From: a plasmid
DNA length: 24,533 nt
Strand: one strand, 5' to 3'
Sequence record: NZ_CP021968.1
This document shows, one piece after another, positions 7,985 to 24,533 of the stretch. Numbering within the stretch: the stretch's first letter is position 1; each line of letters begins with the position of its first letter. The position numbers and the translations under genes are program-made. The notes below the pieces were generated by a model that saw nothing but the letters and a program-made list of their open reading frames with translations, ran no database searches and was not told the origin of the DNA.

Positions 7985-8040
7985 GTTCTCATACTAGAAA
8001 AATGACCTATTGTTATTTGGTCCGTAAAATGAAAGTATAG
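7985..8040 (+). mobile_element. IS3-family type 1, copy B, left terminus (part 1), interrupted by IS30
   Basis: tgttctcatactagaaaaatgacctattgttatttggtccgtaaaatgaaagtatag aligns with the copy A left end at 6575-6632. Collinearity resumes at 9084. Confidence 0.6.
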
Positions 8041-9083
8041 GGTAGATTGCAAATTTAATCCGAATTTTTTGACAAATTAGTCAGCATCACTTGGTAAGGT
8101 GTTTGCCAGTTAAGTACTTTAAGGGGGCGCTGGTTAATTTCGAGTAACGTCGTTGTTAAATCTTGAGCACTAATGTGCTCAAAACAAGTCCCCTTAGGGT
8201 AAAAATAACGTAAGTTCCGATTGAATCGTTCATTACTGCCGCGTTCAGCGGGCGTGTAAGCATGGCAGTAATAGGTATGAATACCGTATTGTGGTTCAAA
8301 TGACACTAGATTGCTAAACTCAGTTCCACGATCGACAGTAAAGGTGTGTACCGGTCCCTTAAAAGTTGTTAGAAACATAGTTAGGGCTTCATTAACAGTC
8401 GCCGCTGTCCGATCTTTTAATCGGTAAGCCCAAAGAAAACGTGATTTGCGATCAATTAGCGTTAATAAAGCAACCTTGCTATGTCCACGAGGTCCAACCA
8501 CTGTATCTATTTCAAAATCACCGATGCGGTTACGTTGGTTAATCACAATTGGTCGTTGTTCAATTGAACGCCCTAATGATTGATTATATTTAGAACGTTT
8601 GTCAAGGTTACGCCGTTGGCGTAGCCCATGTTCAGGTAGTTCACTCAAGGAGAATTCAATTTTCCCCTGATATAGCCAATTATAAATAGATTTAGTGGCT
8701 AGTTTAAGCTCATGCGCAATCACTTCCGGTGACCATCTTAGACGTAAATGGTTTAGAATGGTTTGCTTTAATTTGGCATTCAGTTTAGTTTTTCGGCCAC
8801 AATGCGCCCGTTTATATTCAGCGTTGGCCTGTGCTAATTCAGCTTGATAAGGTTGACAACGAGATAATTCATAAGAAATCGTAGACGGAGATCGTTTTAA
8901 CCGCTCAGCCATTTGGATATTGGTCAGTCCTAGCTCACAAAAGGTTTCGATTTTAATTCGTTCAGAATAGGTTATACTAGACAAAAGATCAGCTCCTAAA
9001 AAATGGGTTTGTGGTAAACACCATTTTAAAGGAAGCTGATCTTTTTTGTCCGAACAGCGTTCGGATTAATTTTACAATCTACC
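8041..9083 (-). mobile_element. IS30-family insertion sequence, copy 1, intact (1043 bp)
   Basis: Terminal IRs ggtagattgcaaatttaatccgaa (8041-8064) and ttcggattaattttacaatctacc (9060-9083). Flanking ATAG duplication (8037-8040 and 9084-9087) within an IS3 end. Confidence 0.85.
8055..8984 (-). CDS. IS30-family DDE transposase
   Basis: 309 aa. N-terminal HTH (…LGLTNIQMAERLKRSPSTISYELSRC…). DDE region (…DFEIDTVVGP…FTVDRGTEFS…HAYTPAERGSNERFNRNLRYF). TTG start with AGGAG RBS 8 nt upstream. Confidence 0.9.
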   Translation of the reverse strand: MSSITYSERIKIETFCELGLTNIQMAERLKRSPSTISYELSRCQPYQAELAQANAEYKRAHCGRKTKLNAKLKQTILNHLRLRWSPEVIAHELKLATKSIYNWLYQGKIEFSLSELPEHGLRQRRNLDKRSKYNQSLGRSIEQRPIVINQRNRIGDFEIDTVVGPRGHSKVALLTLIDRKSRFLWAYRLKDRTAATVNEALTMFLTTFKGPVHTFTVDRGTEFSNLVSFEPQYGIHTYYCHAYTPAERGSNERFNRNLRYFYPKGTCFEHISAQDLTTTLLEINQRPLKVLNWQTPYQVMLTNLSKNSD

Positions 9084-9362
9084 ATAGGAGTATCTTTATA
9101 TCAATTCGTTATTCACAGGATTTTAAAGATTTACCGGTTAAACTTCACCACGAAGGTCGTTCACTTAAATCATTAGCAGAGGAGTTTGGACCTCCAAAAG
9201 ATTCTATTGCTATTTTGGAAGCAAAAAAGAAATTTTATCACGCAGAGCGTGACAGGCATTGCGTGTTCATCTTACTAGCCAAAAAATAGTCCGTGATGTG
9301 GGATTGCCGCTAATCAACCAATTTTTAGCACAAGGCACGCACTTGTGCGTATTTTAAGTGTA
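9084..9362 (+). mobile_element. IS3-family type 1, copy B, continuation after the IS30 (orfA region). Truncated at about 9362.
   Basis: Collinear with copy A 6633-6890 (…ttagcacaaggc…gtgcgtattttaagtg…). Homology stops at about 9362 before the LacY-like gene. Confidence 0.6.
9098..9289 (+). pseudogene. IS3-family OrfA (HTH) remnant of copy B
   Basis: The frame of track ORF 9011-9289 from about 9098 reads ISIRYSQDFKDLPVKLHHEGRSLKSLAEEFG…, OrfA-like. No canonical start codon follows the AGGAG at 9086-9090. The upstream part of the track ORF runs through the IS30 IR and is spurious. Confidence 0.4.
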
Positions 9363-9399
9363 CGGGAAATCAAATTTACGCAAATATGAGCTTTAAAGG

Positions 9400-10488
9400 T
9401 TAGACATCGGACTCCCCTTTAAAATAAAGAGGTACCGCTACTTTTGAGACTGAATCATTTCTCAAAGAAACCATAGACGCTAAGAACACAACAAATACAA
9501 ATATTCCCAGAGCCATGTATGTGGTTCTAAAACCAACCGAGTCATACATTATTCCCACTAAAGGTGCAAACACAATAGTACCAAATTGAATAAAGAATTG
9601 GTAACCAAACAAATAAAGCGTCGATGATAATCTTGATTCAAAGTGCAAATCTAAATACTTAAAGACTGCAATCAGCAGTACTGGTAATTCAAATGAATGC
9701 ATCAGCTTAATGGTTGCAATTAGCACAGGTCCCACAACAACACCTGACAAAGTAATACGACTTGCCATAATAAATGCTGCAAAGAGCAATGATTTTTTAG
9801 GCCCAATCTTATTAACTATACTTGGTGCAACAAACATCATTCCCGCTTCCAAGAAGACTTGGAGGGAATTGAGATAACCGAACATTTCATTGCCTGTCTT
9901 TAGATTAGCAAATTGATTTGCAAAATAACGCGGGAATTGTTGATCATAAACTCCGTAAACACATACAATGCACAAAGAAAATAGTGCAAAAGCCCAAAAA
10001 TCTTTTAGCTTAAGCAACGTTAGAATATCGTGGAAAGAAACAGAACTGGCTGCTTCTTTCTCTGTATCGGACACTGCTATCTTAGTAGACATCACAATTA
10101 CCAATAAAATAGCACCACTGGCCGAAGCTAACCAAAAATTATAATCTGGATTGATATTATAAACAGCTCCAGCAAAAAAGGTCGCGGTTGCCCAGCCCAG
10201 AGACCCCCACATCCGCGCTTTTCCATATTCGAAATGATACTTTCGTCCTGTTTTTTCAATATAAGATTCCAATGGACCCATTGAAAATGATGAGCTTAGA
10301 ATTATGGCACCTATAATTGCACCAAAAATGAAATTGCTTCTCAATAGTGGTTCATATACAAAAATAAAAAACGGCGCAGTTAGCGTGAGTGAAATCGCAA
10401 AGAAATATAATAAATTCTTTCTATTACCAAATTTATCAGAGATATAACCAAAAATTGGTTGAGAAAATAATCCAAATACTGCATTTAT
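9400..10488 (-). pseudogene. Second LacY-type (OHS family) sugar permease, 5'-truncated by IS6 insertion
   Basis: The frame stays open from 9400 up to the IS6 IRL at 10489. It translates as …FSQPIFGYISDKFGNRKNLLYFFAISLTLTAPFFIFVYEPLL…FEYGKARMWGSLGWA…KLMHSFELPVLLIAVFKYL…. This aligns with LacY from about residue 55 onward. The first TM helix or helices and any promoter are missing. Confidence 0.8.
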
Positions 10489-11298
10489 GGTTCTGTTGCA
10501 AAGTTTCCTGATAAACTAATTTTAAGATAGAATAGAGGAAAAAGATAGCTTGGAGGACAAAAGATGGATCACTTTAAAGGCAAACAATTTCAGGAAGATG
10601 TAATTATTGTCGCTGTAGGTTACTATCTTCGATATAATCTAAGTTATCGAGAAGTTCAAGAAATTCTTTATGACCGTGGAATTAATGTCTGTCATACAAC
10701 CATTTACCGTTGGGTACAGGAATACGGTAAAGTCCTGTACCAAATTTGGAAAAAGAAAAATAGACAGTCTTTTTATTCGTGGAAAATGGACGAAACCTAT
10801 ATCAAAATCAAAGGAAAGTGGCACTATTTATATCGAGCAATTGATGCAGATGGACTAACTTTAGATATTTGGTTACGTAAAAAGCGAAATACACAAGCAG
10901 CATATGCGTTTTTAAAACGATTAAAGAAGCAATTCGGAGAGCCAAAGGTTCTCGTTACAGACAAAGCCCCATCTATAGGTAGCGCGTTTAAAAAGCTACA
11001 GAAAAACGGATTCTATCTAAAAACAGAACATCGAACGGTTAAATATCTCAATAATCTCATTGAACAAGATCATCGTCCAATTAAACGTCGCAGTAAATTT
11101 TACCAAAGCCTTCGTACGGCCTCTGCCACGATTAAGGGCATGGAAACCATTCGAGGAATATATAAAGAAAGCCGAAAAGAAGGAAATCTCTTCGGCTTTT
11201 CAGTCTGTACTGAAATTAAAGTTTTAATGGGTATCCCAGCGTAATTTATTGTAAAACAATTAGTAGTATGATTTGTTTTTAAACTTTGCAACAGAACC
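10489..11298 (+). mobile_element. IS6-family insertion sequence (IS1216/IS1297/ISS1-like), 810 bp
   Basis: Terminal IRs ggttctgttgcaaagttt (10489-10506) and aaactttgcaacagaacc (11281-11298). No 8-bp target duplication: the flanks are gcatttat and taaaaaac, so it sits at a recombinant junction. Confidence 0.9.
10564..11244 (+). CDS. IS6-family transposase
   Basis: 226 aa, MDHFKGKQFQEDVIIVAVGYYLRYNLSYREVQEILYDRGINVCHTTIYRWVQEYG… with the DDE core (…KMDETYIKIKGKWHYLYRAIDADG…LVTDKAPS…IEQDHRPIKRR). Confidence 0.9.
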   Translation: MDHFKGKQFQEDVIIVAVGYYLRYNLSYREVQEILYDRGINVCHTTIYRWVQEYGKVLYQIWKKKNRQSFYSWKMDETYIKIKGKWHYLYRAIDADGLTLDIWLRKKRNTQAAYAFLKRLKKQFGEPKVLVTDKAPSIGSAFKKLQKNGFYLKTEHRTVKYLNNLIEQDHRPIKRRSKFYQSLRTASATIKGMETIRGIYKESRKEGNLFGFSVCTEIKVLMGIPA

Positions 11299-11768
11299 TA
11301 AAAAACCAAATTATTTACACACTGATATGGGCAGTCAGTTCACTAGTTTTGGCTTTGAAAATTTGTTAAAGCGAGACAAAATTGATCATTCATATTCAAA
11401 ACTAGGATATCCATATGATAATGCCAAAATTGAAAGTTTTCACTCCCTATTAAAGCGTGAAATGATTTATCAATTCCGGTTTCCATCGATTGCACATCTA
11501 ATTTTAGATGTGTCCAAGTATATTCATTGGTTCAACAACGAAAGAATATCCATATGATAATGCCAAAATTGAAAGTTTTCACTCCCTATTAAAGCGTGAA
11601 ATGATTTATCAATTCCGGTTTCCATCGATTGCACATCTAATTTTAGATGTGTCCAAGTATATTCATTGGTTCAACAACGAAAGAATTAGTCTTGCCAATC
11701 AAAAAATAATAGTAGCCTAATCAGTTCAGCCCTAGATAAAAAATATTCCGAATTATTGACTTATGAGC
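11299..11768 (+). mobile_element. IS3-family type 2, 3' fragment, abutting the IS6 right IR. Contains a 139-bp tandem duplication.
   Basis: Collinear with 21236-21569 of the full copy (KKPNYLHTDMGSQFTSFGFENLL…PYDNAKIESFHSLLKREMIYQFRFPSIAHLIL…). Ends …ttattgacttatgagca (right IR) at 11768. Confidence 0.85.
11407..11684 (+). repeat. 139-bp direct tandem duplication (2 copies) inside the IS3 orfB remnant
   Basis: 11407-11545 and 11546-11684 are essentially identical (atatccatatgataatgccaaaattgaaag…caacaacgaaagaat). 139 is not a multiple of 3. Confidence 0.9.
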
Positions 11769-11818
11769 ATTTATCTATCTAAGTTTCATCAATGACGTTG
11801 ATTAATTCGTATTACTAT

Positions 11819-12148
11819 TTATTTGTTTTTCAAACGTGCATCACGCGCTTCTAGTGTATCAGTCTGTAAGGAAAATGACTTTTGTTCACTACTACTTAGA
11901 TTATCTATAAATGCTTGTAGAGCTAGATCTAAAGCACTCTTTTGGCTGTCTGCATATCCTAAGTTGGCTATGGCTTGTAATTTATTCCTTGAATGGTTGC
12001 TGATTTTCAAGTTTGTGTCGAATGATACGCTAGTAGCTGGTACGGCTGGTTTCTTTTCTGTTGTAAAGTCTTCTGCCTTGGCAATTACTTTAGGGGCAAT
12101 ATTTTTTTTATTTCTGTTTGATTGGATGAGTGAATTAGCCATGTTCAA
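11819..12148 (-). CDS. Small partition / centromere-binding protein (ParG/ParB-like, putative RHH)
   Basis: 109 aa directly downstream of parA, overlapping it by 14 bp. Basic, low-complexity N-terminal tail followed by a strand-helix-helix-like segment (VSFDTNLKISNHSRNKLQAIANLGYADSQKSALDLALQAFI). Typical type Ib layout. Confidence 0.5.
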   Translation of the reverse strand: MNMANSLIQSNRNKKNIAPKVIAKAEDFTTEKKPAVPATSVSFDTNLKISNHSRNKLQAIANLGYADSQKSALDLALQAFIDNLSSSEQKSFSLQTDTLEARDARLKNK

Positions 12149-12944
12149 TGTCCTCTATTCTTTTTAGCATTTCGTCTGTTACTTTTTCATAAACAGCAAA
12201 GACATTTTTGTCGTGTTTACTATTAAATGTTATACCTGTAATGCCATATCTTTTTATTCGTTGCATTGCGTGTATTTTAGTGTCAAGAATATTACTTTTA
12301 CCAAACGTCTCAGTTGCATTGATAATAGTTGCTTCATCGACTGGTGCACCAGCTTGCATTAGTACGGCCAATATACCAATTAGTTCTAGTCTAGGTGCTT
12401 CGTAAGTGTCTATTACTTCGTCTTGAATATACTTGATAAATGTTTCTGCTCCGGTAAAGCTTGCTTCATGTGTTTGCATGACAATTAAACTATAATCTGA
12501 AGCGTATAAGGCACTATCTGTGATTAATGAAATTGTTGGTGGAATATCAATTATTATATAGTCATAATTTATTTTCACTGGAGTTAATAGTTTATCAAAT
12601 TGTTTTACTCGATCATTATAGTCCTTAAACCTCTCCATATATCTTGGATATAAGGAGAAATCAGGAGCAGAAGCCATTAGGTCTAAATTTTCCATGATGT
12701 TTATTATAGAATGAGATAAATCCCCTTCCTCTATACTAGACATTAAAGATTTATCAAACGTCACCATTTGATCAGTTAAATTCGCTTTTGTCTTTAGATA
12801 TAAAGTTGTTGCGTTTCCTTGGGGGTCTAAGTCTACTAAAAGAGTTTTAAAGTTTCTTTTACTTAATTCTAGGGCAACCATTGTGGAGTTTGAAGTTTTT
12901 CCCACACCACCTTTGAAGTTCCCAAACGTTATAACTTGTGTCAT
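12135..12944 (-). CDS. parA: ParA/Soj-family partition ATPase
   Basis: 269 aa with the deviant Walker A (FGNFKGGVGKTSNST) and …LLVDLDPQGNAT… RBS AAAGGG upstream. Confidence 0.9.
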   Translation of the reverse strand: MTQVITFGNFKGGVGKTSNSTMVALELSKRNFKTLLVDLDPQGNATTLYLKTKANLTDQMVTFDKSLMSSIEEGDLSHSIINIMENLDLMASAPDFSLYPRYMERFKDYNDRVKQFDKLLTPVKINYDYIIIDIPPTISLITDSALYASDYSLIVMQTHEASFTGAETFIKYIQDEVIDTYEAPRLELIGILAVLMQAGAPVDEATIINATETFGKSNILDTKIHAMQRIKRYGITGITFNSKHDKNVFAVYEKVTDEMLKRIEDIEHG

Positions 12945-12960
12945 CTTTACCCTTTCTTAA

Positions 12961-13210
12961 TGTAGTGCTGTAGTTCATTATTTCTAGAACTAATGAATAC
13001 TATAGTGTAGTAATGCTAGTAATAGATAGTCTATCAGTGCAATAGTGCAAGTTAATTAAAAATAAGTCCATATAATGTTATTATAACAGCATTTCATGAA
13101 AGTACAATAGTGCAAGTATAAAAACACTACATAGTACTTAGACTATGTAGTGTTAGAAATAGATAGTGTTAGAAATAGATAGTTCTAGTGTGCTATAGTG
13201 CTATAGTGCT
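12961..13210. repeat. Iteron / operator-rich region upstream of parA: candidate centromere (parS-like) and/or replication iterons
   Basis: caatagtgcaag ×2 (13040, 13106). tgttagaaatagatag ×2 in tandem (13152-13183) plus aatagatagtc (13021). gctatagt tandem (13193-13209). 11-bp-arm palindrome cactacatagt-acttag-actatgtagtg (13125-13152). ttctagaa palindrome (12983-12990). Confidence 0.7.
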
Positions 13211-13223
13211 AAGCGCAAAAGTT

Positions 13224-13253
13224 TTGACATTTTGCTTTTGTTGATGATACAAT
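13224..13253 (+). promoter_or_regulatory. Strong sigma70-like promoter with extended -10, reading into a non-coding structured region
   Basis: -35 ttgaca (13224-13229), 18-nt spacer, tgatacaat (13245-13253). No credible ORF follows for about 800 bp. Confidence 0.5.
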
Positions 13254-13690
13254 GACAATTGAATCAAGGAAAAAAGAATAAAAGAAAAGCCACCAAGGAT
13301 TGCCGTCCTTGATAGCTACGTAAATCTTATTTGTTTTGGTTAACGTAACTATATTATATAACATAACCTTTGTGTTGTAAATGTGGGTGATTTCAAAAAG
13401 AGTGAAGCCAAACACTTTAAGGGGTAGGGCATATATGACGTGTAGGGGGTAGTTACCTAGAGTAACTCGGAAGAGCCAAATCGCTGTATATGGTATACGA
13501 AAAAATAGACAAGTGCCATTTTCCCAGACACTACTGTACAAAAACATTTGGGTGCTACACAAACAATCCATACTGGGCGTGTAGTAGGGTGAGAGCGACC
13601 ACAAACGGCTCGGCAGGTAAAACGGTGTCTACGGACACAGGGCTTGTATTTAAGTTGTAGCGCGAAAAAAGATAATAAATATAGTGATAC

Positions 13691-13713
13691 AGCGCCAATA
13701 AGGGCGTTTTTTT
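13691..13713 (+). terminator. Weak intrinsic terminator candidate closing the non-coding transcript
   Basis: agcgcc-aataag-ggcgtt stem (4 GC pairs plus wobble) followed by TTTTTTT. Confidence 0.3.
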
Positions 13714-14072
13714 ATTGGTTTAATGAATAAAGTAATTAATTAAAGCAGGCGGGTAAAACCAAAGCTTGTATGGATAAGGTGACGGACGACTGAACGATCG
13801 GTCAAGTGTTTGTTAACAGTAAAGTTTTCTTCTTCCCAAAACAAGGGGGAAACTAATTTCAGTTCAAAACTCCCTCACTCTCAATCAAGCATTTGTAACT
13901 TCCTGTGTCAACAAATTTTTATGGTTCTTCTAAAGATAAATTCCAGTTTTTCAGACAATTAGTTTATTATTACTTATTCTATTAGTATGATATGTCTATT
14001 TTAAGTACTTTATAAGAAAATATAGTATAATAATATATACAAAGATATTGACGTATATACAAGGAGTTTCAA

Positions 14073-14366
14073 ATGACTGCATTAGTAAAAAATAAACAGT
14101 TTAGTTTTCGTACAAATGATGAATTACTTGTTAAAGCGCAAAAGATTGCTGCTGCTGAGCATTTTGATATGGCTACAATTTTTAATTCAGTTTTAGAAAA
14201 GATGGTGGCTCAAGATGATGTTCCTGTTGAGCTAATTGATGAAAAACAAAAACGTCAAGATAAAATTATTCAGTCTTTGTATACTGAAATAGACCAGGGT
14301 TATCAGGACTATAAAAATAATCGTGTAAAAGGGATTGATGAGGCGTTTTCAAAGTATGGCGCATAA
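14073..14366 (+). CDS. Type II antitoxin, RelB/DinJ-like
   Basis: 97 aa (…FSFRTNDELLVKAQKIAAAEHFDMATIFNSVLEKM…), DinJ-like. RBS AAGGAG. Overlaps the downstream toxin gene. Confidence 0.6.
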   Translation: MTALVKNKQFSFRTNDELLVKAQKIAAAEHFDMATIFNSVLEKMVAQDDVPVELIDEKQKRQDKIIQSLYTEIDQGYQDYKNNRVKGIDEAFSKYGA

Positions 14367-14676
14367 TATTTTGATTACTGCTGCTGCGCAAAGAGATTTA
14401 GATGATATTTTTGAATATATCAATGAAAAATTTTTAGCCCCACAAGCGGCAATTAATACATTAAGTAATATCAAATTATCAATTTTAAAAATAGCTGAAA
14501 TGCCAGAAATAGGCATCGATGTTTTCAAGAGATTGCATAAAAAATTTAAAATTTCAGAAACATTAAGGATGATTCCTGCTGGAAATTATTTAGTATTTTA
14601 TATTATTTCAGATCAAGACTTGGTTATTTTACGAGTCCTTTATCAACGACGAAACTGGTTAGAGATTTTTGGTTAA
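14356..14676 (+). CDS. Type II toxin, ParE/RelE superfamily
   Basis: The internal ATG at 14356 gives MAHNILITAAAQRDLDDIFEYI…YLVFYIISDQDLVILRVLYQRRNW, a ParE/RelE-like fold signature. The 11-bp overlap with the antitoxin is typical TA coupling. Confidence 0.65.
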   Translation: MAHNILITAAAQRDLDDIFEYINEKFLAPQAAINTLSNIKLSILKIAEMPEIGIDVFKRLHKKFKISETLRMIPAGNYLVFYIISDQDLVILRVLYQRRNWLEIFG

Positions 14677-14760
14677 AATCTCAGGAAATGTTTGTTGCAG
14701 AGGTTATCTAATGTTGAAAAAGGGTAGAAAATGAAAAATAGGAATAGCTTAGATACTATT

Positions 14761-14947
14761 ATTATATTTTGCTCGTATACTGAAAATCCGGACTGCTTTA
14801 TTTCTAGGGCATAATCCGAGATAATCAAGTATAGGAGTTTTTTTATATTATGAAAGCTAAGCAATACTCAACAGAATTTAAGTCATCAATTGTTGCCTTG
14901 TATAACGAGGGACGTTCTGCTAATTCTCTAGCCAATGAATACCATTT
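14761..14947 (+). mobile_element. IS3-family type 2, 5' fragment (left IR plus orfA N-terminus)
   Basis: tgctcgtatactgaaaatccggactgctttatttctagggcataatccgagataatcaagtataggag… is near-identical to 20341-20525. The orfA start at 14850 reads MKAKQYSTEFKSSIVALYNEGRSANSLANEYHL and then diverges, with a stop at 14967-14969. Confidence 0.85.
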
Positions 14948-14998
14948 GAACCAGAAACAATTCAATTAATCAGTTATTGGGTAAGAACCCCAGAACAA

Positions 14999-15283
14999 AT
15001 GAGATCATTTATTGGCATAATATTAAATGCAAGAAAAGATATTCAAGCTGATATAGAAAAACAAACAGGACGTCCAGTAACAATTATCATGGATATGGAA
15101 CCAGAATTACAAAAGGGAATAACGACTACACTTAGAAGATATTTTAAAAGCATTAGAAATACAGATAATAAAAACAAAAAAATTAATAGTCCTGAAAATT
15201 ATCTGTATATCTCAATGAAGAACTACTTTGGATATTGGTATAACTCTGAAATGGCACAAAGAAACAAGGAAGCGTCTAATTAA
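14999..15283 (+). CDS. Hypothetical protein, possibly the 3' remnant of a gene cut by the IS3 fragment
   Basis: 94-aa ORF. Its frame stays open upstream to about 14942 (…PFEPETIQLISYWVRTPEQ-MRSF…), i.e. into the IS3 junction. No family recognised. A weak hairpin and T-tract follow at about 15284-15302. Confidence 0.25.
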   Translation: MRSFIGIILNARKDIQADIEKQTGRPVTIIMDMEPELQKGITTTLRRYFKSIRNTDNKNKKINSPENYLYISMKNYFGYWYNSEMAQRNKEASN

Positions 15284-15435
15284 GCGTTTAAGCTTGTTTT
15301 TTTGAATGACGTATAAAACCAAGCATTAAGTCATAAAACGCCTGATACGCTTAATAAGAAGCAATTAAGACATAAATAACTAGTCCATTATATAATTGAC
15401 TTAGAAGACAAATACATTTAGCAGGAGGAAATATA

Positions 15436-15621
15436 ATGAATAAACAAAATGTTTTTGATGAACTATTGTTAGAAGCTGAGAAAACCAACTTACAAGTTTT
15501 AATGGATAATGCTTTAAACGAAAAAGATCCCGACAAGAAAAAAGTCTTACATGCAATTTATACGTATGCGCTTGATAAAAAACAGGACGAACTACTTAAA
15601 GACAAAAAGTTTGTTATTTAA
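15436..15621 (+). CDS. Small acidic helical protein, a candidate antitoxin partner of the downstream P-loop protein
   Basis: 61 aa with a strong RBS AGGAGG 7 nt upstream. Its stop overlaps the next start (TAATTATG), suggesting translational coupling. Confidence 0.4.
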   Translation: MNKQNVFDELLLEAEKTNLQVLMDNALNEKDPDKKKVLHAIYTYALDKKQDELLKDKKFVI

Positions 15622-15623
15622 TT

Positions 15624-16301
15624 ATGGAAAAGCCAAAATATGTGATTATCGCAGGAATAAACGGAGCAGGTAAAAGTACATTATACCGATTACAACCTGA
15701 ATTATTTCACAGTACAGAACGAATTAATGCTGATGAAATTTTGCAAAAAATGGGTGGCGATTGGAGAAAAGAAATTGATAACTTTAGAGCTATGCGAGAA
15801 GAAGTTAAGCAATTACATGACGCTCTCAATAATTTTAAAAGTATTCATGTGGAGACAACACTTGCAGGTAGTGGAAAAGCACAATTAAATTTGATTGATG
15901 AAGCCCATAAAAATGGTTTTGAAGTCACATTACTATATGTCACAGTCAATAGTGCTGAAATGGCTATTAATCGAGTACAGGATAGAGTTAAAAATGGCGG
16001 TCATGGTATACCACCAGAAACGATTAAAAAGCGTTACAGTCAATCCTATAATAACTTGCCAGCAGTTGCGTTTAAAAGTGATAATGTTTTTATTTATGAT
16101 AACAGTAAAAAATTTGTCAACGTATACACGAGAAAACATGAGCAAGTTCAGATTAATAACTTGAAACAATATCCATGGATTAATCAAGGTGTAACCTTTT
16201 CAAAAAAGGTACAAAATCAATTAGATAAATTTGCTGAAAATAACCCAAGCGTTACTGAAAATTTAAATAAGACAATTAAAAAGGATAACCCTAAGATTTA
16301 G
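15624..16301 (+). CDS. Zeta-toxin-like / AAA_33 P-loop kinase-family protein
   Basis: 225 aa. Walker A IIAGINGAGKSTL. INADEIL about 20 aa later (zeta-like catalytic Asp context). C-terminal …RVQDRVKNGGHGIPPETIKKRY… (GGH…RY as in zeta/PezT-family kinases). Confidence 0.5.
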   Translation: MEKPKYVIIAGINGAGKSTLYRLQPELFHSTERINADEILQKMGGDWRKEIDNFRAMREEVKQLHDALNNFKSIHVETTLAGSGKAQLNLIDEAHKNGFEVTLLYVTVNSAEMAINRVQDRVKNGGHGIPPETIKKRYSQSYNNLPAVAFKSDNVFIYDNSKKFVNVYTRKHEQVQINNLKQYPWINQGVTFSKKVQNQLDKFAENNPSVTENLNKTIKKDNPKI

Positions 16302-16303
16302 GG

Positions 16304-16570
16304 CTATCCTTTTTTGTATTTATCAGGCTTATTTGAATTAACGTAATTAGAAAATATTTTTAAAAGATTTTCTGTGTCATCAACTGATAAACTTTCAGTT
16401 TCAAAGTATTTATCTAGTAGGGCACCTTTTTGGATTAAAAGACGGGTACGTTCTCTTCTAGCTTTAGAGTTTTCAAAATATTTTGATTGGCGTAAAGTAA
16501 ATTCTTCCTGATCAATTTTTTTTTGAAGTTTTTCTTTTGATGAAACTAATTGATTTAACTTTTTACTCAT
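16304..16570 (-). CDS. Small coiled-coil protein with a KARRERTRLLIQKGALL motif: a relaxosome-accessory-like protein (DUF3847-like, from memory)
   Basis: 88 aa. Transcribed divergently from the relaxase, second gene after oriT. RBS AGAGG. Confidence 0.35.
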   Translation of the reverse strand: MSKKLNQLVSSKEKLQKKIDQEEFTLRQSKYFENSKARRERTRLLIQKGALLDKYFETESLSVDDTENLLKIFSNYVNSNKPDKYKKG

Positions 16571-16592
16571 AGGCTAAAACCTCTAATTATTT

Positions 16593-16934
16593 TTAAGAGA
16601 TACCATTGTTTTTATCACTAGCATTTTCAGGTGAGTTACTATCATCTTTGTTTGTAACATTATTTTCATTATCGCTAGCATTTTCAGGTGAGTTACTATC
16701 ATCTTTGTTTGTAACATTTTTTTCATTATCGCTAACAATACTTGAATTAAAAAAATCAGCTATTTGTTTTGAAATATCTTTAATTTTTTCTTGATCCAAA
16801 TTTGAATAATCAAAATTAGAAAGCTTGATTATTTCATGACCTAATTTTTTATCAATTTTCTCTTTTTCATTTTTTATTTTTTCATTTAGCTTATTCAATT
16901 TTTCTTGCTGTTTTTCTAAATTGCTTAAAGACAT
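16593..16934 (-). CDS. Coiled-coil protein with tandem 19-aa repeats, a possible Mob accessory protein
   Basis: 113 aa. K/E-rich helical N-terminal half, then SDNEKNVTNKDDSNSPENA ×2 encoded by a 57-bp DNA tandem repeat. RBS GGGGTG. Divergent from oriT/mobA. Confidence 0.45.
   Translation of the reverse strand: MSLSNLEKQQEKLNKLNEKIKNEKEKIDKKLGHEIIKLSNFDYSNLDQEKIKDISKQIADFFNSSIVSDNEKNVTNKDDSNSPENASDNENNVTNKDDSNSPENASDKNNGIS
16629..16742. repeat. 57-bp tandem repeat ×2 inside CDS 16593-16934
   Basis: tagcattttcaggtgagttactatcatctttgtttgtaacattattttcattatcgc at 16629-16685 and 16686-16742 (one mismatch/indel). In frame, so 19 aa per unit. Confidence 0.9.
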
Positions 16935-17084
16935 ATCTACACCCCTTTATAAAAATGTATTTATTTATTTGAACACAGAATAACATAATGAGGGGGACAA
17001 GTCAACATATCTGTTGCATAAACAAAAAATAAATAGTACACTAAAAATGAATTTTAGATACATCAGAAAAACGAATGAAATGAG

Positions 17085-17130
17085 TTCAATGCGCACTTAT
17101 ACCCCACTCATAAATTTGTGGGGTAATTGC
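17085..17130 (-). promoter_or_regulatory. Predicted origin of transfer (oriT), MOBQ pSK41/pIP501/RSF1010 type, with the nicked strand being the minus strand
   Basis: Minus strand reads ACCCCACaaatttatgaGTGGGGT (7-bp IR, 17101-17124) immediately followed by ATAAGTGCGCattg (complement of 17087-17100). TAAGTGCGC is the conserved nic core of RSF1010/pSK41-type oriTs. Located 80-120 bp upstream of the relaxase gene. Confidence 0.6.
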
Positions 17131-17208
17131 TAAAAAATATGTATCAGAAGTCGCCTATGGCGACAACAAAAACAAAGAATATAAATAAAATGAAAGGTAG
17201 CGGACAAT

Positions 17209-19239
17209 ATGGCAATATTTCACATGAATTTTAGCAATATTAGTGCAGGAAATGGAAGAAGTGCTATTGCCAGTGCTAGCTATCGAAGTGGCGAAAAACT
17301 ACATAGTGATATGGAGGGGAAAAACTATTTTTATGCTAGAGATGTTATGCCTGAAACATACATTTTAGCACCAGATAATGCACCTGATTGGGTTAATAAT
17401 AGGGAAATACTTTGGAATGAAGTTGAAAAGAAAGACAGACGTTCTAATGCTAGATACGCAAAAGAATTTAATGTTGCACTACCAGTAGAATTAAGCGAAA
17501 TTGAACAGAAAGAATTACTTTTAAAATATGTTCAAAATACATTTGTAAATGTGGGAATGGTTGCTGATGTTGCAATTCATAGAGACCACCCAGATAATCC
17601 ACATGCTCATGTTATGCTTACTAATCGCCCATTTAATGAAGACGGAACATGGGGAATTAAAAGTAAAAAAGAATACATTTTAGATGAATATGGTAATAAA
17701 ACCTATACAGGAACGAGTAAGTATCCTAAGAGTAAAAAAATATGGTTAGTTGATTGGGACAAAAAAGGAAAAGTTGAGCAGTGGCGTAAAGATTGGGCTA
17801 AGGCAGTTAATAGGGTTTTTGAACAAAAAAATATGCCAGATCGGATTAGCGAAAAGACATTAGATGAACAAGGTATTGACGGAGTAGCAACGCAACATGT
17901 TGGTGTAAACGGACAACGACCAGAAAGAGAAAAATTTAATCAATTAGCTTTGGAGAATAGAAAGCATAAAGCACAACTGAAAAACGTTGTCGAAAAAATT
18001 CATAATGAGCGCAGAATGCAAACACTACAAAATCATCTATCATTTAGTGAAAAGCGTTCTGTATCACAGCTAAGTAAAGAGTTACAAACATTTGTTAGTT
18101 TGGAAAATCTAGACGACAAAAAACGTATGCTATTTAACTGGAAAGACAGCTTATTAATTAAGCAAGCGGTTGGAGAAGATATATCCAAGCAAATGTTTAC
18201 TATTAATCAGCAAGAACAGTCATTAGAAAAGGCAAATGATTTACTTGATAAAGTTGTTGATAGAACAATTAATAGTATTTATCCAGATGTTGATATTGAA
18301 CAAACAACAATTGCTGAAAGAAGAGAATTAATTAAAGAAACAGATAGTGAAAAAACAATCTTTACAGGACAAGAATTAAAAGACCGTTTAGCTATGATAC
18401 GAATGGATATTTTGAATAAAGAAATATTATCATTTACAAAGCGACCTTATGTTAGTTGGTTAGTTTTGGAACATCAGGAAGAAAGAACCAAAAATAATAT
18501 GACGGAAATATTATCTCAAAAGGGTTATAAATTTGCTGATATAGAACGTTCAAAAGGTAGTATTATACGTAACTTTAGTGATGAAGAACAGGATATTTTG
18601 AAACGTGGAATTAAAGATTTACAGGCAACTAATGAAATTAAAAACGTTGTTCAAATTCAATATGCAGGAGTGTTAAAAAAGACATTCCCTGATATGGATA
18701 TTGATAATGTGACAATGGTTGATCGGGAAAAAATTTATACCGCTATTGTCTACTTTAACCCTGAATTGAAACAACTTTCAAAACAAGAATTTAATGAATT
18801 AAAGGATAATCCACCAATTAAATTTAGTACGAGAGAACATCAACAAGGGCTTGCTTACTTGAGCGGTACGATAAAACTTGATGATATTAAGAACCCTAAT
18901 CTGATTAGAGTATTAGCTAATGAGGGAACAAAACAGCTATTTATAGGAGAAAGTAGTCAAGACCCTAATATTACTAAGGAACAAATAGAACAGGTCAAGC
19001 AAGTTATGACGCAAAACAATGGTGCTTATGAAGATTATCGCAAAGCCAATATTAGTGATTATCAGAGTGTCAATTATCGAGAAACAACACCTGCGGAGTA
19101 TCTTAACAGTGTATTTAGTAGTGTCATTATAAAATTGTTATATGTTGATGAAGCACGTAGAAAGAAAGGCTTGAAAGAAACAGAATGGGAAATGGAGAAG
19201 AAGAAAAGACAGCATGAAAAGCATGGTAGACAAATGTAA
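17209..19239 (+). CDS. mobA: MobA/MobL-family (MOBQ, Nes/TraA-like) conjugative relaxase
   Basis: 676 aa. N-terminal motif I with the catalytic Tyr context (HMNFSNISAGNGRSAIASASYRSGEKL). His-triad motif III HRDHPDNPHAHVMLTNR. Overall layout matches pSK41 Nes / pIP501 TraA. Confidence 0.9.
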   Translation: MAIFHMNFSNISAGNGRSAIASASYRSGEKLHSDMEGKNYFYARDVMPETYILAPDNAPDWVNNREILWNEVEKKDRRSNARYAKEFNVALPVELSEIEQKELLLKYVQNTFVNVGMVADVAIHRDHPDNPHAHVMLTNRPFNEDGTWGIKSKKEYILDEYGNKTYTGTSKYPKSKKIWLVDWDKKGKVEQWRKDWAKAVNRVFEQKNMPDRISEKTLDEQGIDGVATQHVGVNGQRPEREKFNQLALENRKHKAQLKNVVEKIHNERRMQTLQNHLSFSEKRSVSQLSKELQTFVSLENLDDKKRMLFNWKDSLLIKQAVGEDISKQMFTINQQEQSLEKANDLLDKVVDRTINSIYPDVDIEQTTIAERRELIKETDSEKTIFTGQELKDRLAMIRMDILNKEILSFTKRPYVSWLVLEHQEERTKNNMTEILSQKGYKFADIERSKGSIIRNFSDEEQDILKRGIKDLQATNEIKNVVQIQYAGVLKKTFPDMDIDNVTMVDREKIYTAIVYFNPELKQLSKQEFNELKDNPPIKFSTREHQQGLAYLSGTIKLDDIKNPNLIRVLANEGTKQLFIGESSQDPNITKEQIEQVKQVMTQNNGAYEDYRKANISDYQSVNYRETTPAEYLNSVFSSVIIKLLYVDEARRKKGLKETEWEMEKKKRQHEKHGRQM

Positions 19240-19260
19240 AATGAACGTAATAAAAAACTG

Positions 19261-19289
19261 TGCACATTGTGCTCAATTATTGATATAAT
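19261..19289 (+). promoter_or_regulatory. Promoter with extended -10 for the 19322 gene
   Basis: -35-like tgcaca (19261-19266), 17-nt spacer, tgatataat (19281-19289). Followed by RBS AAGGAG and a GTG start. Confidence 0.45.
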
Positions 19290-19321
19290 GGTTATATAAA
19301 TTAGGAAAGGAGAAACCGTGT

Positions 19322-19777
19322 GTGGCAGAAAATCAGGAGTGGTACAGTCTTACCAAAGCCAGTGAAAAACTGGGGTATGGCAGAACTTATGTTAGCGTGT
19401 GGTTACGCAGACATAAAGACGACTTCCCAAGCAGTATGTTAATGGAGTCAGGAAACAGCAAGATGATTTCTGAACAAGGCATAGAATGGATTAAAGAAAA
19501 CATAAAAAAAGCGGGCGTCCTCGTCAGCAACAGTAGTGCTAATGAGGATAAATACCTAATATTGCGAGTATTAGGTAAAGCCCTTAATATCCATTTTACA
19601 GGGTGGGCAAGGGGACGTCTAGCGCCTAACTTACTAAGAACAAATTGTGTGGTAAAGCCAGTGAAACGGCCAGTTTTTTTTACGACATCAAGTGCCAAAA
19701 TAACCTGCGACCTATGTTTCACTACCAATTTTAGAATAAATCCAAAAAAGGTGAAGAATTATCTCCGTCGAGAATAA
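19322..19777 (+). CDS. Hypothetical protein with an N-terminal HTH-like segment. Extent uncertain.
   Basis: GTG start 9 nt after AAGGAG. N-terminal WYSLTKASEKLGYGRTYVSVWLRRHKDDFP resembles excisionase/MerR-like HTH. The C-terminal about 60 aa are compositionally odd and overlap the convergent terminator. Confidence 0.35.
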   Translation: MAENQEWYSLTKASEKLGYGRTYVSVWLRRHKDDFPSSMLMESGNSKMISEQGIEWIKENIKKAGVLVSNSSANEDKYLILRVLGKALNIHFTGWARGRLAPNLLRTNCVVKPVKRPVFFTTSSAKITCDLCFTTNFRINPKKVKNYLRRE

Positions 19778-19787
19778 TCTTCACCTT
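19743..19787 (-). terminator. Rho-independent terminator of the SemiSWEET gene (minus strand)
   Basis: aaggtgaagaattat / ataatcttcacctt stem (about 13 bp). On the minus strand it is followed by TTTTTTGG, 25 bp after the stop at 19812. Confidence 0.7.
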
Positions 19788-19811
19788 ATATGTTAGTAAG
19801 CTGTTCAGAAG

Positions 19812-20072
19812 TTAAATGGCAGTCACGAAAGCGATTAGTCCAAATATTATGCCTGGAAAATTAGCTAAGGCGACAGGTATGTCGTGATGATTCTTTTTTA
19901 GTGCGTAGATAACCCACAAGGTACAATTGATAGCCGCCACCAGTGGTTGTAAGGGGTTCGCCTTAGAGCCGGCTAGGTTATCTGCTATTTGAGGGATATA
20001 CGAAACATACATTAAAACAGCCATGACGGTCGCAATCCAGCTTAGGTATTTTATAAAATTTGTTTCTTTCAC
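19812..20072 (-). CDS. SemiSWEET (PQ-loop) small sugar transporter
   Basis: About 86 aa with 3 predicted TM helices and the PQ motif (…VLMYVSYIPQIADNL…). The likely start is the GTG at 20072, which has a strong RBS AAGGGAGAAG 7 nt upstream. The 110-aa track ORF probably over-extends the N-terminus. Confidence 0.6.
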   Translation of the reverse strand: MKETNFIKYLSWIATVMAVLMYVSYIPQIADNLAGSKANPLQPLVAAINCTLWVIYALKKNHHDIPVALANFPGIIFGLIAFVTAI

Positions 20073-20215
20073 GATATTCTTCTCCCTTTTTATTCTACGC
20101 TTTAATAATACAACGAAGTGAATAAAATCACAACTTTTTATCATATTGATGAAAAGTGGTCGCGATTTTTACCTTAAAAGTTGTAATTTTAGAATATTTT
20201 TCATATTAATTTGTA

Positions 20216-20304
20216 CCTTTTTTAGAAATAGTGCTAGTATAAACATACGGTGATTTTTTCTACCAGAAGTCAAGTGTTTCAAGGCATTTGACTTCTTTTA
20301 TTTT
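20216..20304 (+). ncRNA. Candidate small RNA (promoter to intrinsic terminator, no ORF), antisense-proximal to the SemiSWEET 5' region
   Basis: Promoter-like ttgtaa (20181-20186), 17 nt, tattaa (20204-20209). Then a 9-bp perfect stem agaagtcaa/ttgacttct (20265-20296) followed by tttatttt. No coding capacity. Ends 36 bp before the IS3 left IR. Confidence 0.3.
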
Positions 20305-20417
20305 GAAATTTTGTTAACAATTAGCACTACTTAAATAAACTGCTCGTATACTGAAAATCCGGACTGCTTTATTTCTAGGGCATAATCCGAGATAATCAAG
20401 TATAGGAGTTTTTTATT

Positions 20418-20693
20418 ATGAAAGCTAAGAGATACGCAACTGAATTTAAATCATCAATTGTTGACTTGTACAACGAGGGTCGTTCTGCTAATTCGCTGGC
20501 CAATGAATATCATTTGGCTGTACAAACGGTTACGGGTTGGGTCAAAAAAGCCCAAATCGTTGGGACTGACATGAATGGCAACCAAGTGACTCGTGCCAAA
20601 TTTAATGCAATGCAGAAAGAAATCGCGCGACTCAAGGAAGAAAACGAAATTTTAAAAATTGCGGCCGTTTTGCTGGGCGAACATCGCAAGTAA
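20418..20693 (+). CDS. IS3-family transposase OrfA (HTH)
   Basis: 91 aa, MKAKRYATEFKSSIVDLYNEGRSANSLANEYHL…, leucine-zipper-like C-terminus. A candidate -1 slippery heptamer TTTAAAA at 20651-20657 lies near its 3' end. Confidence 0.85.
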   Translation: MKAKRYATEFKSSIVDLYNEGRSANSLANEYHLAVQTVTGWVKKAQIVGTDMNGNQVTRAKFNAMQKEIARLKEENEILKIAAVLLGEHRK

Positions 20694-20725
20694 AACGTAA
20701 GACCCATTTTCCTATTGTCCAATCA

Positions 20726-21520
20726 TTGCTAAAACAGCATTTTAAACTCATGATGGTGCTTCGTCTACTCAAAATACCCAAAAGCACCTACTTTGATTGG
20801 GTTCACTATACTGAAAGCCATCGTCAACGAGAAGACACTATTTTAAAAGCTTTATTACGTGAAATTTGGCAAAATAACTACAAAGCTTATGGGGCGCCAC
20901 GTTTGCGATTAGCATTGGCTGATCTGAATTTACATCATGGTACCAACCGAATTCGTCGCTTAATGCGAGAAGCTGGTATACACTCTGTCATGAGTCGACG
21001 GTTTAACAAACCAACGACAACAGTTGATTATATTCAACGGCCAAACTTAATCAGAAAGTTACAAGACGCCAATGTCTGGAGTATGGACATCACTTATTTA
21101 AAGTTAAGCAATGGTCAGTGGGTGTATTTAGCGTCAGTTTTAAATCTACGAACACATAAGATATTAGCCCATCAAATCAGTGGCACGATGGATACCAAAT
21201 TAGTAGTTACAACACTACAAAGAGCGCTATCAACTCATAAAAAACCAAATTATTTACACACTGACATGGGCAGTCAGTTTACTAGTTTTGGCTTTGAAAA
21301 TTTGTTAAATCGACATAAAATTGATCATTCGTATTCAAAGTTAGGGTATCCATATGATAACGCCAAAATTGAAAGTTTTCACTCTCTATTAAAGCGTGAA
21401 ATGATTTATCAATTCCGTTTTCCATCGATTGCTCATCTAATTTTAGGTGTGTCCAAATATATTCAATGGTTCAACGACGAAAGAATCAGTCTCGCCAATC
21501 GAAACATGAAAGTAGCCTAA
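20726..21520 (+). CDS. IS3-family transposase OrfB (DDE integrase domain), expressed as an OrfAB fusion by -1 frameshift
   Basis: 264-aa ORF in the -1 frame relative to orfA. The -1 frame is open from the slippery site at about 20651. DDE core …WSMDITYLKL…YLHTDMGSQFTS…PYDNAKIESFHSLLKRE…. Confidence 0.85.
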   Translation: MLKQHFKLMMVLRLLKIPKSTYFDWVHYTESHRQREDTILKALLREIWQNNYKAYGAPRLRLALADLNLHHGTNRIRRLMREAGIHSVMSRRFNKPTTTVDYIQRPNLIRKLQDANVWSMDITYLKLSNGQWVYLASVLNLRTHKILAHQISGTMDTKLVVTTLQRALSTHKKPNYLHTDMGSQFTSFGFENLLNRHKIDHSYSKLGYPYDNAKIESFHSLLKREMIYQFRFPSIAHLILGVSKYIQWFNDERISLANRNMKVA

Positions 21521-21572
21521 TCAGTTCAGCCCTAGATAAAAAATAGTCCGATTTATTGACTTATGAGCAATC

Positions 21573-21650
21573 TGCTCTTATACTAAGAAGGTGGGCTATT
21601 TTATTCGGTCCATAAATATAGTATAGGGGTATTTTCATATTAATTTATTA
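21573..21650 (+). mobile_element. IS3-family (type-1-like) left-end remnant abutting the right IR of the intact IS3, separated by 3 bp
   Basis: tgctcttatactaagaaggtgggctattttattcggtccataaatatagtataggggtattttcatatta aligns with the left ends at 6575 and 7985. Preceded by …gagca (21569) plus atc. Confidence 0.5.
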
Positions 21651-22345
21651 TAAGAAAAATTTATAGATTTGCTGCTAAAACTTAGCCAAAAGAAGGTCGT
21701 TAATTTAAATAATGAGCAATGTGATTGTTCCCATTAAAGAATTCTATTGGTATGTGAGCTAGATAGGGTAAGCCGTAGTGATTAATGTAGATCCAAGATA
21801 GTAAAGGATGTCAAGCATCTAGAGAAGTTTCCTGTTATCCTAGTAGGTAAAAATGAAAATTTGTCGTGTAAGATTACTAGTAATTGAACAGTGTTGGATC
21901 CAGAGATAATAGTTTTCATATCAAGTTCAGCATGGGCTACGGTTAATTTTATTAATATCTAGTCTGTAGGCATCATGATAACAGCCACTTAGAAATCTTT
22001 CATCTAAATTTGAATCGTGTAGCAGTTCACTGAAAGAAATACCGTACGTTAATATAATTTTAAACAACGATTTGTTGATATAAAAATTTTTTTAACTACA
22101 AGCGCAGTTTAAATGATAACAAAGTAACAGAATGGGAATAATCCGGTTCATTGGATGTCTGAGTAATTTTTAGTGCAATAAATAGTCAGCTCCATTCTCT
22201 AGGTTGCTAATGTTCTAATTCAAATTTTGCAGTTACGTCATTAAATTAAAATGAATTTAATACTTATATTCTTAATATTAATTTTCAAAGGTGACCAAAG
22301 CTTATGCAGTAGCGATAGTTTATCCCAGTACAAGGAGAAAATAAT

Positions 22346-22672
22346 ATGGTAAATGAAATTGAGTTAACAACAGAAAATTACGAACAGATTGTGTCAAAGG
22401 GGATAACCATAGTTGATTTTCGTGCGGATTGGTGTGCCCCCTGCAGAATGATGGATTCTGTTCTAGAAAAGGTAGCAGAAGACCCATCATACAAAAATGT
22501 TAAATTTGGTAAGGTAAATGTAGATAAAAATATGGAGCTGAATGTTCGTCACTCTATTTCTGGGATTCCAACTTTTTTATTTTACAAGGATGGAGAAATT
22601 ATTGACAGATCAGTAGGTCTGCAAACAAAGAATACTGTTAAAAGTATGTTAAATAGTTCATTGAATAAATAG
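22346..22672 (+). CDS. trxA: Thioredoxin
   Basis: 108 aa with the WCAPC active site (FRADWCAPCRMM). RBS AAGGAGAA. Confidence 0.9.
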   Translation: MVNEIELTTENYEQIVSKGITIVDFRADWCAPCRMMDSVLEKVAEDPSYKNVKFGKVNVDKNMELNVRHSISGIPTFLFYKDGEIIDRSVGLQTKNTVKSMLNSSLNK

Positions 22673-23062
22673 TGATCAATATCCATGTGTAATATTCAAT
22701 ATATTTCTTAATTTTTTCGTTTAGTATTTTATTTGACTGATAATTGTATTGATTTTTCTATAAGCGTATTTCATATATTTATATTCGTTCGATCTAAAAT
22801 CATTTGAAAGGGAATATTTTTTGTATATCTTCGCTCTATGCACATAAAATTTTTGCAATAAAATCATTTATACCTCAATTTTTAAAAAATTGAGTAATTT
22901 ACCAATAATAGTAATAGTTTCATGTTTTTATCATTTTAGCCAGAAAACTACTTTAACTCCCCTATTAAAGTATATCGTCTGAATGCTAGTTTGCTCCACA
23001 AGTGTATCCCAATTTGAACCAGAGTCATTGATAATATTTATATTAATTTGTTCTCCCGTTAC

Positions 23063-23083
23063 CTAAACAACAATGTTGTTTAG
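23063..23083. repeat. 21-bp palindrome 10 bp downstream of the resolvase stop
   Basis: ctaaacaaca-a-tgttgtttag, perfect 10-bp arms. Confidence 0.8.
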
Positions 23084-23092
23084 CATTCATGA

Positions 23093-23650
23093 TTATCTGA
23101 ATAGTTTTTTAATATATTGCACGGTCCTAGGTGAAATATTGAATGCTTCGGCAGTTACTTTAACAGTATGTGTTTTTGAATATTCAAAGATAGCAGTATT
23201 TCGGCTATCTTTTTTTCTTTTGGGTCTGCCTTCTTTATAGTTAGGATTGTGTTGCTTAGCAAATATTTTTCCTGCTTGTGTACGTTCAATAATCATGTCA
23301 CGTTCCATCTCCGCAACCGACAATAAGGTTCTAACAAGCATACGACCCATAGGAGTGTTATCAATCGTTCCTAAGTTTAAAACTTTGATAACGATTTTTT
23401 CTTTTAATAGGGAGTCAATTAAATTTAGCGCTTCTCGCGTGTTACGGGCAAAACGGTCTAATTTTGTGACAATCAAAGTATCATTTGGTTCAACTAAATG
23501 AACTAACTTTTCGAATTGGGGACGTGTGGTAGTGGTCCCAGAATATTTTTCACTCATAATGATATCAGCACCAGCCTTCTTCAAAGTATCTTTTTGTTCA
23601 TTTAACGATTGTCCCGCTGTTGAGACGCGTGCATAGCCATAAACTGTCAT
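23093..23650 (-). CDS. Serine recombinase (resolvase/invertase family)
   Basis: Start at MTVYGYARVSTAGQSLNEQ… with the catalytic Ser in the YARVST context. RBS GAGGTGGAAA. C-terminal HTH. The track ORF begins 4 codons earlier at an upstream ATG. Confidence 0.9.
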   Translation of the reverse strand: MTVYGYARVSTAGQSLNEQKDTLKKAGADIIMSEKYSGTTTTRPQFEKLVHLVEPNDTLIVTKLDRFARNTREALNLIDSLLKEKIVIKVLNLGTIDNTPMGRMLVRTLLSVAEMERDMIIERTQAGKIFAKQHNPNYKEGRPKRKKDSRNTAIFEYSKTHTVKVTAEAFNISPRTVQYIKKLFR

Positions 23651-23662
23651 TTTCCACCTCAT

Positions 23663-23751
23663 TAATTTGCATAATTAAATTGCATATTATAAAACCTATT
23701 ATATCAAGGGATATAAAAAGCGCAAGATACTTAAAAGTTTTTTGCGCTTTT
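23663..23751. promoter_or_regulatory. Candidate res / regulatory region upstream of the resolvase
   Basis: Imperfect palindrome atttgcataattaaattgcatat (23666-23688). Perfect 10-bp IR aaaagcgcaa / ttgcgctttt (23716-23725, 23742-23751) with a 16-nt loop. Confidence 0.35.
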
Positions 23752-24042
23752 AACATTAAACGAAAGGTTTGTCGAATAAAAATGTATACCTCATGTTAGT
23801 CAATTTTTTATTGTACTAATTTAATTATTACCAATCTGATGTAGGGTATTTTGTTTGTATTCATTTGGAGATATTCCAACTATTATTTTAAATAATCTAT
23901 AGAGAGAAGAATGATTTTTGTAACCAACTATTTGACTTATATTTTCAATTGACATATCAGTGCTCAGAAGTCAATAAAATTGACTATTTTTATTCAGTTA
24001 ATTAAGGTCACATTTGAAATGCGATTACGATTATAAAAATTA

Positions 24043-24533
24043 GGTAGATTGAAAAATTAAACCGAACATTTGAATAAAAAAGCCGCAGAGCCTTTAATGG
24101 TAATTGACTAAAAAAACCATAAAGTAACAATAAAGTAACTGTGATCCATGACTAGTTTATCATCTTCAGAACGTACTGTCATTCAAACAATGCTTCAATT
24201 GAATTATTCTGTTCGTGCCCTTGCTTGCTTCATTAACCGTTCACCCCCGACTATCTCTGTTGAAATTCATCAAGTGGCGTCTTATAGCGCCAACGCAGCC
24301 AACAAGTTGACAGAAATGAAATGCCATCTTCGTGGTCGGCATACGATGCTAACACCTGATATTGCTGTTTTAAAAGGGTCACCACAGACAGCTTCTCATG
24401 TACCAGGACTATCCTTTAAATCCATCTATAATTAGATTAATAGCGGTCTATTGAAACTTAACGTTGGTAATCTACTCGACAGAGGTACTCGTCAGAAGAG
24501 GAAGAGCGACGGTAGGCGACAAGTGTTTGTTCA
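24043..24533 (+). mobile_element. IS30-family element, copy 2, 5' portion (continues at 1..522)
   Basis: The left IR ggtagattgaaaaattaaaccgaa (24043-24066) resembles the copy-1 IR ggtagattgcaaatttaatccgaa. The transposase N-terminus follows. Confidence 0.7.
24148..24533 (+). pseudogene. IS30-family transposase, N-terminal part, with a premature TAG
   Basis: HTH (…LNYSVRALACFINRSPPTISVEI…). …SFKSIYN then TAG at 24433-24435 where copy 1 has TGG (Trp). The frame continues (INSGLLKLNVGNLLDRGTRQKRKSDGRRQVFV) to the window end and joins position 2 in frame. Confidence 0.75.

Follow-up and report, generated by a model that had tools for sequence, protein, structure and literature searches.

The closest known counterpart of the plasmid analysed here is pDRC2 (NZ_CP014613.1; 24,244 bp), which was deposited as circular from Leuconostoc mesenteroides subsp. 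jonggajibkimchii DRC1506, and a second relative is a plasmid of L. kimchii NKJ218 (NZ_CP037936.1). Two other Leuconostoc plasmids, pDRC1 (NZ_CP014612.1, positions 33378-34295; L004) and pLMCBA713101 (NZ_CP021967.1; L005), carry intact IS1070-like insertion sequences with the terminal repeats GGTAGATTG...AACCGAACA, the pDRC1 copy being annotated as 'IS30-like element IS1070 family transposase'; these two elements are the references used below. With regard to replication, the relevant described system is p256 (NC_006278.1) of Lactiplantibacillus plantarum, whose replicon is used in pSIP-type Lactobacillus vectors. The p256 'miniori' is credited to Sorvig et al. 2005 as cited in PMC3526553, where a 1690-bp plasmid is described that comprises nothing but cat and the minimal origin of p256; p256 is not mentioned in the review PMC4490491.

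We have compared these systems with a 24,533-bp stretch of plasmid DNA (NZ_CP021968.1), referred to throughout at its full length as the window. Taking its sequence together with that of the sister record pDRC2, we conclude that the window is almost certainly a circular plasmid that has been cut at an arbitrary point inside a dead IS30-family element. The plasmid is already known, since it is in GenBank as pDRC2, and the junction between the window's end and start is an ordinary bookkeeping feature.

The window ends with ...CAAGTGTTTGTTCA (at greater length, ...GGCGACAAGTGTTTGTTCA) and starts with TGGCCGTTCTATTGAA (TGGCCGTTCTATTGAAACG), such that the sequence across the joined bases 24533 and 1 reads ...GTTTGTTCATGGCCGTTC.... 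Translation of the concatenated end and start yields, in a single frame, ...DGRRQVFVH up to the join and GRSIETRPKSVQTRQTFGYFEVDT beyond it (in longer form, ...RGTRQKRKSDGRRQVFVH followed by GRSIETRPKSVQTRQTFGYFEVDTMQSGKRRGDVLVTITKD and a stop), which reproduces exactly the joined frame quoted in an earlier note on this DNA. At the equivalent site the intact IS1070-like transposases have RRQVFVHGRSIETRPESVKARQTFGHFEVDT, and the transposase of a second, intact IS30-family element within the window (copy 1) has ...NQSLGRSIEQRPIVINQRNRIGDFEIDT (longer, ...KYNQSLGRSIEQRPIVINQRNRIGDFEIDT) at the homologous position. The earlier note had described the ends as meeting in frame inside a transposase; the frame does hold at the join, but the gene is a pseudogene, a point that the note missed, and because it is broken in four places the continuity of the reading frame is by itself weak evidence. 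Nucleotide collinearity across the join outweighs it. The joined ends align with the intact IS1070-like elements over 1037-1043 bp at 78.5-78.9% nucleotide identity (E = 0), and in a MAFFT alignment there are 0 indels at the 24533/1 join relative to either reference, with no base lost or doubled. Judged against these independent intact elements the window ends abut without gap or overlap, and the window is not terminally redundant: its outermost 12-30 bases at either end each occur a single time. Exact 50-mers spanning the junction or taken from just inside the window end had no match in the genome and metagenome contig collections scanned. Joining base 24533 to base 1 restores the 1013-bp element exactly.

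An alternative explanation is that the window is linear and that its ends were made by an assembler break at a repeated IS30 element, in which case the join would be coincidental and the true flanks would lie elsewhere. IS copies often break short-read assemblies, both ends of the window are inside an IS, and there are candidates for the repeat in copy 1 and in the IS1070-like element on the sister plasmid pDRC1. Breaks induced by repeats, however, fall at the repeat borders or leave overlapping ends, whereas this one is in the middle of the element with ends that abut to the base. Nor are the candidates similar enough: the pDRC1 copy is only 78.5% identical, and copy 1 has no blastn match to the dead element at E 1e-5, its transposase sharing only 35% amino acid identity with the repaired transposase of the dead element (77-78% for the IS1070-like transposases), which bears out the earlier argument that the two IS30 copies are too diverged for a repeat-induced break. 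As described next, pDRC2 also contradicts a linear contig, and we regard this explanation as extremely unlikely.

Searching with 1 kb from each side of the junction (megablast) shows one plasmid, pDRC2, whose sequence continues across it. The window and pDRC2 are circular permutations of one another, and the window covers pDRC2 completely and exactly once: window 18392..24533 plus 1..11547 corresponds to pDRC2 1..17543 with 1 mismatch, window 12267..18391 corresponds to pDRC2 18124..24244 with 0 mismatches, and window 11543..11686 matches pDRC2 17400..17543 a second time. The window junction lies inside a single uninterrupted 17.7-kb alignment, at approximately pDRC2 position 6021, while the end and start of the pDRC2 record fall at window 18391/18392, inside mobQ. 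Because the two records are linearised at different points, and each break lies inside the other record, they mutually confirm the circle. The two plasmids have their genes in the same order throughout, with 1 mismatch in 23.8 kb aligned, and both have the dead IS1070-like element, intact IS30, IS6 and IS3 copies, the sucrose module, parA, relBE, the zeta toxin gene and mobQ. They differ in the start point (window 18392) and in a 139-bp tandem duplication in the window, the unit of which is single-copy in pDRC2 and also in the L. kimchii plasmid. Both the pDRC2 read-through and the exact abutment of the ends thus support the proposal that a circular contig was linearised at an arbitrary point.

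The pDRC2 alignment also contains 106 gaps totalling 150 bases, every one of which is a deletion in pDRC2, and 102 of them (146 bases) are within the 6.7 kb that follow the pDRC2 start, equivalent to window 18392..24533 plus 1..2600. These gaps break mobQ, an MFS transporter gene and other genes, and small deletions 4-10 bp from the window junction fit the same pattern. Over 11.9 kb the L. kimchii plasmid can be aligned to the window gap-free, and we therefore read them as most likely being consensus errors at the pDRC2 contig end; the GenBank record of pDRC2 would then carry about 150 deletion errors, the majority close after its own start.

The L. kimchii plasmid is 99.8-100% identical to window 10489..24135 and has the same backbone of parA, a non-coding cassette, relBE, zeta toxin, mobQ and resolvase. 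It lacks the 10,886 bp formed by window 24136..24533 plus 1..10488, and with them most of the dead IS30 element, the sucrose module, the YhgE and Rrf2 genes, the upstream IS3 copies and the intact IS30 element. At the resulting novel joint, window position 24135 (93 bp into the dead element) is fused to the left inverted repeat of the IS6-family element at 10489 (GGTTCTGTTGCAAAGTTT); this arrangement has the signature of an IS6-type adjacent deletion, by which the sucrose module would have been lost. The missing segment is contiguous only if the window ends are joined, and it therefore provides a third line of evidence for circularity.

The L. kimchii record also illustrates a further way in which a circle could be misjudged, as it is labelled linear and its 25,506 bp amount to about 1.9 copies of a 13,508-bp unit, an over-run of the assembly. 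Conceivably the window too is a unit cut by software from a multimer, an over-run assembly or a tandem integration, such that the monomer is not a physical molecule or its size is wrong, and the 139-bp duplication, missing in both relatives, could be an assembly artefact of this kind. The window, however, has no terminal redundancy and covers pDRC2 completely and once, and the circular monomer sequence would be the same even for a plasmid multimer; we consider such an origin very unlikely. The reading that we favour is that the window represents, in its entirety, a circular Leuconostoc plasmid that is in essence pDRC2, has a size of about 24.4-24.5 kb and would have been written out from an arbitrary start in the decayed IS1070-like element. 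Of the closed 24,533-bp circle claimed in the earlier note the circularity stands, and the exact size carries an uncertainty of 139 bp, since the tandem duplication may be real or an assembly artefact and the plasmid may accordingly be 24,533 or 24,394 bp. The choice of start would also be understandable, as assemblers that rotate circles to rep or dnaA would find neither here, repA being truncated. Recognition of the contig as a complete circular replicon has quality-control value and the junction itself provides no new biology. For annotation, the split IS30 ends should be treated as a single pseudogene that spans the origin and not as two partial transposases. The coordinates of these and other features are listed in the table.

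Table. Positions of the principal features of the window.
Feature	Coordinates	Strand	Basis or remarks
Left (5') 491 bp of decayed IS1070-like element	24043..24533	+	Alignment to L004/L005, TRF, translation
Right (3') 522 bp of the same decayed IS1070-like element	1..522	+	Alignment, translation, NCBIfam profile
Left inverted repeat (IRL), dead IS30	24043-24068
Right inverted repeat (IRR), dead IS30	497-522		Tip mutated, GATC in place of GGTA
11-bp tandem duplication 5' of ATG, dead IS30	within 24115-24139		TRF and alignment
Transposase ATG, dead IS30	24148
24-bp in-frame deletion (8 codons), dead IS30	after 24369
Nonsense codon, dead IS30	24433-24435		TGG>TAG
1-bp deletion, dead IS30	between 118 and 119		Frameshift, TGA at 125-127
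Nonsense codon, dead IS30	133-135		CAA>TAA
Original stop codon, dead IS30	505-507		TAA
Intact IS30-family element (copy 1), 1043 bp	8041..9083	-	Profile search, repeat analysis
Transposase of copy 1, 309 aa	8055..8984	-
IS6-family element, 810 bp	10489..11298	+	18-bp perfect inverted repeats, GGTTCTGTTGCAAAGTTT
Perfect tandem duplication, 139 bp	11407-11686		TRF; 2.0 copies, 100% identical; inside IS3 integrase-core fragment
parA-type partition ATPase gene	12135..12944	-	Pfam AAA_31, CbiA, ParA
Conserved non-coding cassette, candidate replicon	13224..13931	+
Near-consensus promoter	13224-13253	+
Terminator	13317-13288	-
Near-consensus promoter	13381-13353	-	Invariant in 11 aligned sequences
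Terminator	13691-13708	+
Conserved 35-nt hairpin motif	13820-13854
MobQ-type relaxase gene	17209..19239	+	Pfam MobA_MobL, 275 bits

The rebuilt element that spans the origin begins at 24043 with GGTAGATTGAAAAATTAAACCGAACA and finishes at 522 with ...TGTTCGGTTAATTCTTGCAATCGATC; its size and coordinates, and those of the 1043-bp copy 1, are as previously noted. Its inverted repeats match at 20 of 26 positions and have a motif in common with the intact IS1070-like copies, with which it is collinear over its full length at 78-79% nucleotide identity. The dead copy is 14 bp shorter by net indels, placing the intact elements at about 1027 bp, and the published length of IS1070 reportedly agrees with this. 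When the lesions, which were called relative to the intact IS1070-like elements, are repaired, the transposase scores 199 bits against the NCBIfam profile NF033563 (transpos_IS30; cutoff 80) and 37.7 bits against Pfam HTH_38, with an rve score of 26.9 bits that is under the cutoff of 32.6. Both the transposase profile and the terminal inverted repeats place the element in the IS1070 group of the IS30 family. There is no uninterrupted transposase open reading frame across the element, which has two nonsense codons, a frameshift and the 24-bp deletion, and no target-site duplication surrounds it, the flanks being ...AAATTA and ATCGAA.... The origin-spanning element is a pseudogene, a fossil member of the IS30 family, and because of the stops, the frameshift, the eight-codon deletion, the mutated IRR tip and the absence of a target-site duplication it would have no active part in the junction.

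We note that a terminal piece of an IS3-family element, about 80 bp long (23961..24041), directly abuts the left end of the dead element. This fragment is an inverted copy (86-93% complementary) of 7573-7652, where the IS3 element near 7600 has its right end, and the region around the left end of the dead element is a patchwork of IS remnants. Copy 1 is of a different character: 22 of the 26 positions agree between its inverted repeats, it is bordered on both sides by the 4-bp direct repeat ATAG, and it interrupts the left end of an IS3-family element, such that rejoining the flanks gives a sequence resembling the uninterrupted counterpart at 6590-6700. Unlike the dead copy at the origin, it is probably the product of a clean, recent transposition.

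The maintenance and transfer genes found in the window are those for ParA and its DUF5388 partner, RelBE, the zeta toxin, the MobQ relaxase and a resolvase. A Pfam scan of the window reveals no intact replication initiator gene. What is present of repA is a segment encoding the C-terminal 94 residues (14999-15283; Pfam Bac_RepA_C), cut off by an IS3 left-end fragment just upstream (14755-14948, a copy of 20326-20516), and those relatives in which 'replication initiator protein A' is complete cease to match the window near position 14940. Neither an annotated rep gene nor a MOB-suite replicon type is present in the pDRC2 and L. kimchii plasmid records.

Between parA and relB there is a 1.1-kb interval without open reading frames, and this contains the conserved non-coding cassette. 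The core of the cassette (13270-13931) shows 82-94% conservation across 73 Leuconostoc plasmids; the cassette adjoins parA in all ten relatives examined and overlaps no annotated feature. Its promoters and terminators predict a plus-strand non-coding RNA of about 450 nt (about 13260-13712) together with a countertranscript of about 60 nt (about 13346-13285) directed against its 5' end. In the predicted countertranscript a 5' stem-loop, which contains two covarying pairs and has a variable loop of 21 nt, would precede the terminator with its one covarying pair, and a domain of the long RNA at about 13424-13500 has five to six covarying pairs, which are carried by only two haplotypes. The minimum free energy of the 459-nt RNA has a z-score of -1.08, which is not significant; the whole window has no Rfam match at the gathering threshold, and the region 12900-14100 has only chance-level matches (E 0.66-9). 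A type I toxin-antitoxin system was also considered for the cassette and is unlikely: the only longer open reading frame (13490-13660, 56 aa) does not encode a hydrophobic product, and its frame is not kept by indels in divergent relatives.

Relatives of the cassette are found beyond Leuconostoc. The 35-nt hairpin motif is also present in 152 Lactiplantibacillus plasmids, and an nhmmer profile of the Leuconostoc cassette matches some 250 nt in each of two small plasmids of L. plantarum (E = 1e-8). These matches correspond to the 3' half of the cassette and include the terminator, with compensatory changes in its stem, and the hairpin motif. In the L. plantarum plasmid G1 p2 (L016; 5669 bp) the layout and dimensions of the promoters and terminators are as in the window, and outside the cassette this plasmid is 97% identical to p256, with the window-like cassette located at the position of the p256 'miniori'. 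The p256 miniori resembles the window cassette in being short and non-coding, in lacking a rep open reading frame and in having a strong promoter in the antisense direction; of the convergent plus-strand promoter, which is clear in both the window and G1 p2, p256 has only a weak version. At the sequence level no similarity was detected between p256's own miniori and the cassette of the window, and the p256miniori primer (PMC3526553) is absent from both L016 and L017.

By analogy, the cassette may be a p256-like Rep-less replicon, and its function in Leuconostoc is putative. Our tentative proposal, which we hold to be possible rather than probable, is that the plasmid has no functional Rep and that the circle is replicated from the cassette, which would represent a widespread class of Rep-less replicons present in 73 Leuconostoc plasmids and with a homologous 3' half at the p256 'miniori' position in more than 150 Lactiplantibacillus plasmids. 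If so, the class would have neither an Rfam family nor, in the records examined, a MOB-suite type. This is the one lead of wider interest here: a plasmid family that appears to replicate Rep-free from a conserved RNA-encoding cassette, related to p256 by position and partial homology.

Two further repeated sequences were observed. Directly upstream of parA (12945-13223) are clusters of short direct repeats, with TAGTGTTAGAAATAGA present in 2.2 copies at 13148-13183 and ATAGTGCT in four copies at 13179-13211, and these may constitute a partition site or an operator of the parA/DUF5388 operon. A 57-bp tandem repeat (16612-16734; 2.2 copies, 96% identical) lies in a 113-aa open reading frame on the minus strand (16593-16934), where it encodes a repeated NVTNKDDSNSPENASD motif; the pDRC2 annotation has a shorter open reading frame at this location.
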